DNA from: Nitrospirota bacterium
Lineage (GTDB): Bacteria > Nitrospirota > Thermodesulfovibrionia > Thermodesulfovibrionales > Magnetobacteriaceae
Length of the DNA stretch: 24,000 nt
Assembly: GCA_015233045.1 (NCBI GenBank)
Contig: JADFYL010000017.1
Span: forward strand, 1-24,000
Direction: 5' to 3'
The position numbers and the translations under genes are program-made. Every line of letters starts with the position of its first letter. Position 1 is the first letter of the stretch. Of this stretch, positions 10,968 through 12,367 are shown in pieces. The notes below the pieces were generated by a model. It ran no database searches. It saw only the letters and a program-made list of their open reading frames with translations, and was not told the origin of the DNA.

Positions 10968-11258
10968 TTAACAGCAAGCGCCACTGTCAGAGCCGCAACC
11001 GCAGGACGGTTCCCCCCCGGTTATCATGCCGTTAATGATTGCGGAGGCGCAGCCCACGCCTGAGGTTACTGTTATTGCACCGAAGGCGCAGTTGTTTTCA
11101 CACGCACCGCACTCCATGCACTTGTCCTTGTCGGTTACGTTGGCCTTGCCGTTTGCCATGATAAAGACGCCATGCGGGCAGACCTCTGCACACATGCCGC
11201 ACCCCGTACACCTGTCGCTGTCAAATTGCAGTGTCGCCACACCGGCTAAATATATCAT
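10968..11258 (-). CDS. hgcB: HgcB, 2x[4Fe-4S] ferredoxin of the mercury methylation system
   Basis: 96 aa with two CX2CX2CX3C motifs (CTGCGMCAEVCP and CMECGACENNCA), an additional Cys70, and a C-terminal CC (…SCGCGSDSGACC). It is translationally coupled to hgcA (ATGA at 11255-11258), with GGGGG 5 nt upstream of the ATG. Confidence 0.85.
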   Translation of the reverse strand: MIYLAGVATLQFDSDRCTGCGMCAEVCPHGVFIMANGKANVTDKDKCMECGACENNCAFGAITVTSGVGCASAIINGMITGGEPSCGCGSDSGACC

Positions 11259-12367
11259 AGTACCCCCGATTTATATAGGATCAACGAAATCAACGAGGCC
11301 GCCCCGGCGATTACATAGCCGAAAACAGCATACCTCAGCTCCTTCTTAACGCCCGACATCCCTGTAAAGGTTGTAGAGCCAGTAAACTGAAGGGCGGCAA
11401 AAGAACTCACGGCTGGAAAAAACAACCATGTAAACACCATAAGAGAGACAGGCATCGCCGAAATTAATTTCATGACTAAAACCATGGCCAAAAGCCCTGC
11501 TATCCATCCCTTCAGCGAAAATGCCCTAAATGGAATCACCGGCAGAAATGCCGGCGTTATAAACGCCCCGGCTAAAACGGCTACAAGGCCGAGCAACAGA
11601 AAAGGCGCTCCGCCGTAAAACGCGTCTCTAAAGACGATCCCCGTACTATGCGCCCCAAAAAAAATCAGCACCGCAGCCGCATACACCGGATACCACTTGA
11701 GCATAGGAATTATCTCCATCGGGGTTAGTACCAACCTGTCTGCCATAGGGAAATGAATGGCGCGCATTTGCGCCGTTGCCTTATAGCCATTTTTGATATA
11801 GGCCGCAATATCCGCCGCGTAAACCGGGCCAAACAGGACTTTAAACCCCGTGGCCTTAACGACCTTATACGCGCTTATTCCTACCGCCCCAAGCTGAGGC
11901 ACAATAAGCCTTCTGTGTCGCACACAAAGGGGCAGATTCGTATCAGATATTTTTTTTATCAACTCTTCAGTGGAGAAAGTCCCTTTTCCTGCGGCACACC
12001 ACACATTTATGCCCTTTGTGTCGAGCACTAAAACCCATGTGTTTATCCCCGCAAGCGCACTCCTTAACTTATCGAAGCTCAACTTGTAGTTGGCGCTAAC
12101 AAACACATCCGAGTCCTCTGAAGGCTCACCCACCGCGTAAAGCCCGGGGTTAACAGTATAGTTATTTCTGAACGAACTTAGCCGACACTTCACTGCACCC
12201 CATTTATCGTTTCGTGATAGTGTCGCAGAGACCTTCTTAATGTCTAACACAGTTTTTAAGGCGGCAGCACCGGGGGGCGAAGTTTGAGCGCACTGGCATC
12301 CGGCATTATTGGAGGCAGTCTCAGCAGGGCAGCAACCGCCGCTGTTCGCCTTTTCAGAATTAACCAT
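11255..12367 (-). CDS. hgcA: HgcA, corrinoid-dependent membrane-anchored mercury methyltransferase
   Basis: The diagnostic cap-helix motif GINVWCAAGKGTF is present (N-V-W-C-A-A-G-K at nt 11984-12007; Cys124 codon at 11996-11998). It sits in a CFeSP-like corrinoid-binding domain and is followed by about 5 hydrophobic TM segments in the C-terminal half. hgcB lies immediately downstream. Confidence 0.9.
   Translation of the reverse strand: MVNSEKANSGGCCPAETASNNAGCQCAQTSPPGAAALKTVLDIKKVSATLSRNDKWGAVKCRLSSFRNNYTVNPGLYAVGEPSEDSDVFVSANYKLSFDKLRSALAGINTWVLVLDTKGINVWCAAGKGTFSTEELIKKISDTNLPLCVRHRRLIVPQLGAVGISAYKVVKATGFKVLFGPVYAADIAAYIKNGYKATAQMRAIHFPMADRLVLTPMEIIPMLKWYPVYAAAVLIFFGAHSTGIVFRDAFYGGAPFLLLGLVAVLAGAFITPAFLPVIPFRAFSLKGWIAGLLAMVLVMKLISAMPVSLMVFTWLFFPAVSSFAALQFTGSTTFTGMSGVKKELRYAVFGYVIAGAASLISLILYKSGVL

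Follow-up and report, generated by a model that had tools for sequence, protein, structure and literature searches.

The hgcA-hgcB gene pair enables anaerobic bacteria to convert inorganic mercury to toxic methylmercury. No other genetic marker of methylmercury production by microbes is known, and any lineage with the pair is therefore important when sources of the neurotoxin are to be predicted. The genetically and biochemically characterised HgcA and HgcB are those of strain ND132 (Desulfovibrio desulfuricans, now Pseudodesulfovibrio mercurii). Pyrococcus furiosus, a tested member of the HgcAB-like group, does not methylate mercury. The biochemistry of ND132 HgcAB has revealed S-adenosylmethionine (SAM) as the methyl donor, Co-thiolate ligation and two [4Fe-4S] clusters (PMC11588087). 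The fused HgcAB-like and Nitrospina-type proteins form a separate clade (PMC10083202). An N-terminal extension of HgcA carrying CU or CC has been described for the family, and in many HgcA proteins this bears a Cys-Sec ‘CU’ motif (bioRxiv 10.1101/2022.07.06.499078).

The 24,000 nt of Nitrospirota DNA analysed here (the window) very probably contain an ordinary, intact and unfused hgcA-hgcB operon. The sequence-only reading had described the pair as established biology, and the known two-gene module is confirmed; the biology of this operon is already known, and the present copy offers nothing new mechanistically. The hgcA gene (370 codons plus stop, encoding 370 aa) is the open reading frame at 11255..12367 on the minus strand, and its product is predicted to be the corrinoid-dependent, membrane-anchored methyltransferase HgcA. 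It is followed on the same strand by hgcB (10968..11258, 96 codons plus stop), encoding a ferredoxin of the 2×[4Fe-4S] type. In the HMM check suggested by that reading, both proteins exceed the curated NCBIfam cutoffs for their families while missing those of the paralogous families. HgcA scores 379.1 bits against the HgcA_corrinoid equivalog NF040863 (cutoff 275, E = 1.7e-113), with residues 43–363 aligned to profile positions 1–320 of 325. HgcB scores 122.9 bits against the HgcB_ferredoxin equivalog NF040864 (cutoff 99, E = 3.5e-36), and the alignment is full length (residues 3–96 with profile positions 2–93 of 93). Chance resemblance can be dismissed given these E-values. The distinction of HgcA from CFeSP and the fused paralogs rests on three competing HMM scores (the remaining two are given below) and on the gene architecture. 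The 119 nearest relatives of HgcA are 333–407 aa in length and all are unfused; 65 alignment columns are invariant across them, comprising the eight of the NVWCAAGK motif and 57 others.

The sequence of HgcA is identical to that of GenBank MBF0487127.1, named ‘acetyl-CoA synthase subunit gamma’, and that of HgcB to MBF0487126.1, named ‘4Fe-4S binding protein’. These names would make the larger gene that of the CFeSP large subunit (acetyl-CoA synthase gamma, AcsC/CdhE) of the Wood–Ljungdahl pathway, and the smaller that of a generic ferredoxin. The corrinoid-binding part of HgcA (11753..12241, minus strand) is indeed CFeSP-like. Its Pfam match is PF03599 CdhD (residues 70–186), and a sequence search of solved structures returned CFeSP only and no HgcA, with PDB chains 2h9a, 4c1n and 4djd matched over residues 70–194 (E about 1e-11; residues 318–442 in 2H9A). 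However, HgcA scores just 67.1 bits against the CFeSP gamma equivalog NF003195, where the cutoff is 306, and the match covers only residues 70–194, corresponding to profile positions 322–446 of 450. HgcA lacks the [4Fe-4S] and TIM-barrel domains found N-terminally in CFeSP and has a five-helix membrane domain instead, and there are no acs or cdh genes in the window. In addition a 95% identical orthologue, RefSeq WP_420265158.1, is already named HgcA. Identity as the CFeSP large subunit is refuted at the level of sequence, leaving this explanation with a vanishingly small probability, and the GenBank product name of the HgcA record is a mislabel. HgcA orthologues of this kind are now named automatically by annotation pipelines. 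Surveys based upon product names would miss the hgcAB of the present metagenome-assembled genome (MAG), because its GenBank labels are wrong or generic.

The AlphaFold2 (AF2) model of HgcA (mean pLDDT 80.5, pTM 0.72) comprises a Rossmann-type corrinoid domain and five membrane helices. The corrinoid domain is built of alternating strands and helices, mostly with pLDDT >90. The best match of the model in the PDB is the deposited ND132 HgcA model 9a0b_A (E = 3.4e-20, with 38% of residues identical across 325 columns); Foldseek also matches CFeSP structures, ranked after it. Comparison with ND132 HgcA was made by way of this fold match, the NCBIfam equivalog and the CFeSP alignment. The cap-helix motif N-V-W-C-A-A-G-K reported by the sequence-only reading is located at 11984..12007 (minus strand) by direct reading; GINVWCAAGKGTF is present, and NVWCAAGK occupies residues 121–128, with the TGT codon of Cys124 at 11996–11998. 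The exact motif is found in 119 of 119 homologues, all eight of its residues being invariant. By counting from the alignment, Cys124 lies opposite residue 374 of CFeSP 2H9A. The correspondence of the motif cysteine with the cap-helix cysteine of ND132 was tested by approximation, from this position on the CFeSP cap helix and from the invariant column in the 119 homologues, and both support it. In CFeSP the cap helix has threonine where HgcA has cysteine. Cys124 is predicted to supply the lower axial thiolate to the cobalt. Residues 121–130 are not helical in the AF2 model and have a low pLDDT of 57, as is to be expected since the model contains no cofactor.

The cap-helix motif is common to both HgcA clades (PMC10083202), and HgcA matches part of the HgcAB_like model NF043039 with a substantial 190.6 bits. 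The protein might on these grounds be an HgcAB-like paralog, of either the fused type or the Nitrospina-type clade. Yet the score falls short of the cutoff of 285 and is far under the 379 bits obtained with the HgcA model; HgcB, with 55.1 bits, is also below the NF043039 cutoff of 285. Clustering with CFeSP or with the fused paralogs was approximated by these HMM scores, and HgcA is below both cutoffs. The genes hgcA and hgcB are separate reading frames with their own stop and start, and none of the 119 nearest relatives is fused. Moreover, a full HgcB with Cys70 and the terminal CC directly follows, whereas Nitrospina-type hgcA has no adjacent hgcB (PMC10083202). Membership of the HgcAB-like group is thus very improbable, and the unfused HgcA assignment is retained.

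The C-terminal part of HgcA is a transmembrane domain (residues 206–370; 11258..11752, minus strand). The earlier count of about five hydrophobic helices is borne out both by hydropathy and by the AF2 model. Kyte–Doolittle peaks are located at residues 226–246, 252–275, 286–305, 307–326 and 346–366, and the long C-terminal helices of the model at 208–238, 246–273, 283–299, 307–331 and 338–367. No hydrophobic segment of HgcA exceeds the threshold upstream of residue 205. The model of ND132 HgcA also has a five-helix transmembrane domain (PMC7305189). Each sequence-level observation that might have told against the HgcAB reading (clustering with CFeSP or fused paralogs, misalignment of the motif cysteine, lack of transmembrane helices) was sought directly or by approximation, and the reading withstood them all.

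The stop codon of hgcA overlaps the start of hgcB in an ATGA at 11255–11258, as described previously. The orthologous loci L004–L008 have a junction of this type too, hgcB beginning at the stop of hgcA or a few nucleotides from it. The architecture ascribed to HgcB was found in every element, i.e. a 96-aa reading frame with two CX2CX2CX3C motifs, a lone Cys70 and a terminal CC. The cluster motifs comprise cysteines 17, 20, 23 and 27 (encoded at 11178–11210) and 47, 50, 53 and 57 (11088–11120); the first is followed by Pro28, and the second by alanine rather than proline. Cys70 (11049–11051) lies within the sequence GVGCA, 13 residues past Cys57; a strictly conserved extra cysteine some 12 residues beyond the second motif (Cys73 of ND132) is described for HgcB (PMC7305189). 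A CxC (Cys86 and Cys88) comes next, and the C-terminal residues are SGACC, Cys95 and Cys96 being encoded at 10971–10976. All 17 HgcB sequences in the alignment share the eight cluster cysteines, Cys70 and Cys86; at least 70% of them also have the terminal CC.

At the other end of the operon, HgcA begins with a tail that is predicted to be disordered (residues 1–42; 12242..12367, minus strand), residues 1–38 having pLDDT <50 in the AF2 model. The tail contains Cys12-Cys13 (12329–12334) and Cys24-x-Cys26 (12290–12298). An N-terminal CC dipeptide is present in 89 of the 119 nearest homologues, and also in the HgcA orthologues of the Magnetominusculus clade. Comparison of homologues places the chalcogen pair about 26–56 residues (median 44) before the start of the HgcA core. 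From its sequence, the tail here corresponds to the published ‘CU’ extension, with cysteine in place of selenocysteine. Relative to Ca. M. xianensis, 23 of the 42 tail codons differ non-synonymously, yet the reading frame is maintained and the cysteines are retained. In the close relative L005 an in-frame deletion removes the N-terminal CC, so the tail may be dispensable. An all-cysteine tail together with a natural deletion variant in a sister genome provides a simple handle on the role of the CU/CC extension. Neither the cysteine tail nor the host lineage featured in the sequence-only reading.

Upstream of hgcA a consensus scan located a promoter-like sequence with 10 of 12 matches, TTGCCA-18-TATTAT (alternatively TTGCCA-16-GATATT), at 12377..12406 on the minus strand. 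It ends 10 nt from the hgcA ATG with no Shine–Dalgarno sequence in between, and this suggests that the transcript may be leaderless or have a very short leader. Seven related loci share no upstream sequence beyond the -35-like TTGCCA element and what lies between it and the ATG, and nucleotide homology with the relatives ends at 12410–12428. No RNA family or riboswitch was found upstream of hgcA with Rfam, either over the whole window at gathering thresholds or permissively over 12300–12700. A search for tRNA and tmRNA genes was also negative. Downstream, a perfect GC-rich palindrome (GTAGGGGGGT/ACCCCCCTAC; 10912..10932, an inverted repeat with 10 nt arms of 100% complementarity) separates the stop of hgcB (10968) from that of the convergent Iso_dh gene (10889). 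Its folding energy is -28.5 kcal/mol, compared with -15.4 ± 2.5 kcal/mol for shuffled sequences (z = -5.26). The palindrome probably ends transcription from both directions, though no U-tract directly follows. A rule-based terminator scan found only weak intragenic sites; for want of a T-run the strong hairpin downstream of hgcB went undetected.

The downstream convergent pair encodes an HMGL-like synthase and an Iso_dh-family dehydrogenase, and the upstream divergent gene a tandem USP. The neighbours were therefore correctly described before as a convergent pair and a divergent tandem USP gene, but their ‘TCA-type’ label, while plausible, is unproven because both enzymes fall below every NCBIfam cutoff. 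The lack of an adjacent ArsR-type regulator was also noted correctly: among the open reading frames of at least 100 aa in the 24 kb window there is no ArsR- or MerR-type regulator, and there are no mer genes. The GC content of hgcAB is about 0.50, equal to that of the flanks, and there is thus no compositional sign of recent transfer. The USP, cupin and PilZ neighbours were considered as conserved functional partners and rejected, none being common to all related loci.

The only mildly unusual aspect of this copy of hgcAB is its host, which is most likely a member of the genus Candidatus Magnetominusculus, magnetotactic Nitrospirota. The gene pair is found in Ca. Magnetominusculus DJH-1, HCH-1 and LBB02, and also in the allied Nitrospirota MAGs MYbin6, MYC-10, nDJH14bin7 and nDJH5bin4. 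The closest HgcA orthologue is 95% identical, and no block other than hgcA-hgcB is conserved across all the related genomes. In the literature searched no paper ties Magnetominusculus to mercury, and the link between magnetotactic bacteria and hgcA is limited to citations on magnetite-driven Hg(II) reduction; nor is a magnetotactic Nitrospirota genus with conserved hgcAB discussed there as a potential methylator. A broader proposal, to which we give an even chance, is that hgcAB is a conserved trait of Ca. Magnetominusculus, that these magnetosome-formers are unrecognised producers of methylmercury, and that the Cys-Cys/CxC tail of HgcA is a selenium-free arm for handling Hg(II). The magnetosome-forming bacteria in question shuttle across the oxic–anoxic transition zone. 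Their magnetic collection from sediment would offer a rare route to methylation tests in an uncultured Nitrospirota lineage.

A mechanism may be transferred by analogy from the work on Pseudodesulfovibrio mercurii ND132. The corrinoid would be held in the cytoplasmic Rossmann-type domain of HgcA, where Cys124 would coordinate the cobalt as its lower axial thiolate. HgcB would dock on the five-helix membrane domain of HgcA, where its two [4Fe-4S] clusters could reduce the cobalt to Co(I). Reaction of Co(I) with the methyl group of SAM should generate methyl-Co(III), from which the methyl would pass to thiolate-held Hg(II) to give CH3Hg+. The flexible C-terminal Cys95-Cys96 of HgcB, together with Cys70, might deliver the Hg(II) and remove the product, and the disordered tail of HgcA (Cys12-Cys13 and Cys24/Cys26) is probably a further arm for handling soft metals. 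The cofactor would likewise be bound, and the operon expressed, in the host. Since Hg methylation assays have not covered any of the Nitrospirota (PMC7573106), the activity is extrapolated from proteins that are about 38% identical.

A true hgcAB orthologue could nevertheless serve some other corrinoid-dependent methyl-transfer or metal(loid)-handling role, with methylation of mercury being negligible or accidental in situ. Very low expression or limited uptake of Hg would be examples of how this might arise. The native function of HgcAB is not known in any organism, and its carriers are no more resistant to Hg than other organisms (PMC7305189). In ND132, HgcAB accounts for only some 0.0004% of the protein (PMC11588087), and transcription of hgcA is not always seen in hgcA-positive groups (PMC7438021). 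No mer, ars or regulator genes occur among the reading frames of at least 100 aa in the window. Across the genus hgcAB is under purifying selection in changing genomic contexts, which implies that its benefit does not depend on the genes around it. Against another role, this locus has every residue that methylation requires in ND132, and to our knowledge each isolate with unfused hgcAB that has been tested methylates Hg. We consider such a role rather unlikely, and an operon for mercury methylation remains the preferred reading.

The relationship of the locus to the known systems can be summarised as follows. CFeSP shares with HgcA a homologous Rossmann-type corrinoid domain having a cap helix under the corrin ring, and in both the cobalt carries a methyl group, alternating between Co(I) and CH3-Co(III), and is reactivated by an Fe-S centre. 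CFeSP is soluble, with an N-terminal [4Fe-4S] domain, a TIM barrel and a small-subunit partner, has threonine rather than cysteine at the cap position and receives its methyl group from methyl-tetrahydrofolate; HgcA differs in having a membrane domain, a cysteine ligand and SAM as donor (PMC11588087). The fused HgcAB-like proteins (e.g. of Pyrococcus furiosus) and the Nitrospina-type HgcA have a related corrinoid domain, the cap-helix motif and a membrane domain, and the fused form includes a ferredoxin module. The fused form is however a single polypeptide and the Nitrospina type lacks an adjacent hgcB, whereas the pair here is adjacent and unfused.

The selenoprotein HgcA of Haft and Gwadz (10.1101/2022.07.06.499078) resembles the present protein in having an extension of about 40–60 residues with a vicinal chalcogen pair ahead of the core. 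In contrast to it, both positions are cysteine here (TGC TGC) with no in-frame UGA, and the local motif is GGCCPAE instead of PCUGP. Additional ‘packed’ cysteines have been reported in the cysteine forms of HgcA (10.1101/2022.07.06.499078).

The closest counterpart is the ND132 pair (DND132_1056/1057). As here, the two genes are adjacent, and HgcA has a corrinoid-binding domain and five transmembrane helices. The cap helix N(V/I)WCA(A/G)GK is present in both, the cysteine being Cys93 in ND132 and Cys124 here. Both HgcB proteins are of the 2×[4Fe-4S] type with a lone cysteine (73 in ND132, 70 here) and a CC (94/95 in ND132, 95/96 here), and the published functional residues Cys73 and Cys94/95 of ND132 HgcB (PMC7305189) thus have direct equivalents. 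The two HgcA sequences are nevertheless only about 38% identical, the host belongs to a different phylum and no ArsR-like regulator adjoins the pair here. The extension carries Cys-Cys specified by normal codons, where Cys-Sec (PCUGP, with UGA read through) has been proposed for ND132, and there are extra cysteines here as CxC in both HgcA (24/26) and HgcB (86/88).

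The gene pair lies on the minus strand, where hgcA (11255-12367) is a 370-codon ORF and hgcB (10968-11258) a 96-codon ORF, the stop codon of hgcA overlapping the start of hgcB in the ATGA at 11255-11258. HgcA contains GINVWCAAGKGTF, with the motif NVWCAAGK at residues 121-128 and the TGT codon of Cys124 at 11996-11998. Cysteines 17/20/23/27 and 47/50/53/57 of HgcB form two CX2CX2CX3C motifs; these are followed by a lone Cys70, by Cys86 and Cys88, and by Cys95-Cys96 at the C-terminus. On re-reading, the hgcA ORF, the motif and the Cys124 codon agreed exactly with the sequence-only reading; the ATGA overlap it reported is present, and every cysteine of the 96-aa ferredoxin it described (two CX2CX2CX3C motifs, Cys70 and terminal CC) was located. 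The observation is confirmed, and its interpretation as hgcAB is supported.

Curated profiles had been proposed as a check, and the outcome is positive for both proteins. HgcA matches the NCBIfam equivalog NF040863 over residues 43-363 (379.1 bits, E 1.7e-113; cutoff 275 bits), and HgcB matches NF040864 (122.9 bits; cutoff 99 bits). Two other identities of HgcA were rejected. [quoted passage not shown] Pfam matches the pair with just the generic PF03599 and Fer4 domains. At sequence level the two proteins thus have all the properties of HgcA and HgcB and fall outside both the fused paralogs and CFeSP, so neither the system, as had been claimed, nor the phylum that carries it is new. The pair is very likely an intact orthologous hgcAB, which is known biology and is named automatically in current pipelines.

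The exact NVWCAAGK motif occurs in all 119 HgcA homologues, and N121, V122, W123, C124, A125, A126, G127 and K128 are invariant in the alignment of these 119 nearest database clusters. An HgcB alignment of 17 loci shows no variation at the eight cluster cysteines, Cys70 or Cys86, and at least 70% of the sequences have the terminal CC.

A search of solved structures by sequence matched HgcA solely to the C-terminal corrinoid domain of CFeSP (2H9A, 4C1N and 4DJD; residues 70-194, E about 1e-11), in agreement with the CFeSP-like domain proposed earlier. Cys124 lies opposite residue 374 of 2H9A, a threonine (counted from the alignment), which we take to be the cap-helix residue under the cobalt. 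An AlphaFold2 model based upon the alignment of 119 homologues (mean pLDDT 80.5, pTM 0.72) has a disordered segment (residues 1-38), a domain of alternating strands and helices (43-202), and five long helices (208-238, 246-273, 283-299, 307-331 and 338-367). By hydropathy, HgcA has five hydrophobic segments within residues 226-366 and no comparable segment before residue 205; together with the modelled helices these bear out the expected five or so TM helices. The top PDB match of the model is 9a0b_A (E 3.4e-20, 38% identity over 325 columns), the deposited HgcA model of Pseudodesulfovibrio mercurii ND132 (Cooper et al. 2020), with CFeSP structures next. The layout is the same as that published for HgcA, a corrinoid-binding domain with five TM helices (PMC7305189).

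The N-terminal tail of HgcA (12242-12367, minus strand; residues 1-42) lies outside the HMM match and is predicted to be disordered in the model. It contains four cysteines, in GGCCPAE (Cys12-Cys13) and CQC (Cys24 and Cys26). A preprint reports a Cys-Sec 'CU' motif, PCUGP, within an N-terminal extension of most HgcA proteins; in some of them CC replaces CU, at times 'packed' with more cysteines (Haft and Gwadz, 10.1101/2022.07.06.499078). The present tail is the all-cysteine form of this extension. A CC dipeptide is found N-terminally in 89/119 nearest homologues, 26-56 residues (median 44) before the conserved core. Compared with Ca. Magnetominusculus xianensis, 23 of the 42 codons differ non-synonymously while frame, length and all four cysteines are kept; the tail evolves fast. 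In the sister MAG nDJH14bin7 (L005, 5992-6030) an in-frame deletion has removed CC and left CQC. This selenium-free N-terminal tail, of which nature supplies a deletion variant, is a small lead worth keeping.

No Shine-Dalgarno sequence precedes the hgcA ATG (12367). A promoter-like TTGCCA-18-TATTAT ends at 12377, and the sole upstream DNA conserved in eight loci is the -35-like block plus the stretch down to the ATG; from these features we infer a leaderless or near-leaderless transcript. A perfect 10+10 GC-rich palindrome (10912-10932) lies where hgcB and the Iso_dh gene converge, between their stop codons, and its predicted fold is much more stable than those of shuffled sequences (z = -5.26). 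The window has no match to any Rfam family. On the other side, the tandem-USP ORF listed from 12564 has an ATG near 12630 (MSEVQS...) with a strong AAGGAGG Shine-Dalgarno in front. This is probably its start, making the divergent intergenic region, which also contains an 11-nt imperfect palindrome (12559-12584), about 260 bp rather than 196 bp.

The convergent gene pair and the divergent tandem-USP gene said to flank hgcAB were both found, and no arsR-type regulator adjoins it in the window, as had also been noted. By contrast, two Spirochaetota loci (L018 and L025, about 9800-10000) have winged-helix regulator-like sequence directly upstream of hgcA, MarR-like in L018 and ArsR-like in L025 on visual inspection of the translation. 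The convergent neighbours (8578-10889) are an HMGL-like enzyme of the homocitrate/isopropylmalate synthase family and an Iso_dh-family dehydrogenase, with a 4-nt overlap between the two ORFs. Each is below every NCBIfam cutoff; they are possibly Re-citrate synthase and isocitrate dehydrogenase.

The only block common to related genomes runs from the hgcB stop (10968) to 12410-12428, about 45-60 nt upstream of the hgcA start. In HCH-1, MYC-10 and nDJH5bin4 a PhoU-PstB-kinase-regulator block (histidine kinase, response regulator; window 17877-21552) follows hgcAB (L006 91-5646, L008 284-5837 and L009 9957-13840), and in HCH-1 and MYC-10 a small cupin gene follows hgcAB, lying between the two in L006 and L008. 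In the window this block is on the opposite side of hgcAB and its orientation relative to the pair is inverted; 5.4 kb of unrelated genes (USP, LplA/B-like, membrane protein, UvrD and MEDS-domain) lie in between, and there is no cupin gene. These differences from the three genomes place hgcAB at a rearrangement breakpoint within the genus. The flanks in MYbin6 differ again (PilZ upstream; cupin and sensor kinases downstream). The GC content of hgcAB does not point to recent acquisition.

Within the intervening region, a 337-aa multi-pass membrane protein (14167-15180, minus strand) is matched by neither Pfam nor NCBIfam. About 100 nt are shared between its ORF and the end of the LplA/B-like gene (13485-14270), and one of the two predicted boundaries is therefore probably wrong. 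A stand-alone MEDS-domain protein (17214-17816, plus strand) adjoins the pho regulon genes, and a DUF6765 protein (22226-23170, plus strand) lies beyond them. MEDS domains have a sensory role and are of the DcmR type of methanogens and methylotrophs.

HgcA and HgcB are identical to MBF0487127.1 and MBF0487126.1 of a Nitrospirae MAG, labelled in GenBank 'acetyl-CoA synthase subunit gamma' and '4Fe-4S binding protein'; name-based surveys would overlook this MAG as a putative methylator. WP_420265158.1 (RefSeq, Ca. Magnetominusculus dajiuhuensis; same 90% cluster, 95% identity) is named HgcA. A genome scan found HgcA orthologues in Ca. M. dajiuhuensis DJH-1 (95% amino acid identity), nDJH14bin7 (91%), Ca. 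Magnetominusculus sp. LBB02 (81%), Ca. M. xianensis HCH-1 and MYC-10 (both 78%), MYbin6 (76%) and nDJH5bin4 (62%). N runs (assembly gaps) occur inside hgcA of LBB02 and nDJH5bin4 (L010 about 10350-10365; L009 about 10290-10450), and in the Nitrospinota MAG locus L045 (about 10700-10900) the membrane-domain part of hgcA seems to be frameshifted, with an intact hgcB after it; these defects may be assembly artefacts or pseudogenes. The DJH-1 contig is collinear with window positions 1026-12408 at 92-95% nucleotide identity. Given the orthologues and this collinearity, the window very probably derives from a Ca. Magnetominusculus-like bacterium. Its relatives' names suggest a magnetotactic organism; no magnetosome genes lie within the window.

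Nitrospirae/Nitrospirota hgcAB have been reported repeatedly from metagenomes, with no member assayed for methylation (PMC7573106; PMC7438021). The one element of the present case without a counterpart in the literature searched is the host: open-access papers and preprints yielded none combining 'Magnetominusculus' with 'mercury'. Of those retrieved for magnetotactic bacteria with hgcA or methylmercury, two go no further than citing studies in which magnetite mediates Hg(II) reduction, and the others, as judged from titles and abstracts, did not address methylation genes in these bacteria. Such absence is weak evidence, since the search covered open-access papers and preprints alone. Conservation of hgcAB in a magnetotactic genus is a second small lead worth keeping.

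All the residues of the mechanism derived from ND132 HgcAB (Zheng et al. 2024, PMC11588087) are found in the window proteins. By analogy, the cap-helix cysteine of HgcA would form a Co-thiolate bond to bound cobalamin and HgcB would carry two [4Fe-4S] clusters; the Co(I) corrinoid would be methylated by S-adenosylmethionine, and the resulting methyl-Co(III) would methylate Hg(II). The flexible C-terminal cysteine pair of HgcB and Cys73 (ND132 numbering) may bring Hg(II) in and take methylmercury out, as has been proposed (PMC7305189). That the host actually produces methylmercury is as likely as not or somewhat likelier, a lower confidence than for the gene pair because it rests on extrapolation. 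In ND132 HgcB, mutagenesis has shown that Cys73 and Cys94/95 matter (PMC7305189), and the conserved Cys70 and terminal CC are their counterparts here.
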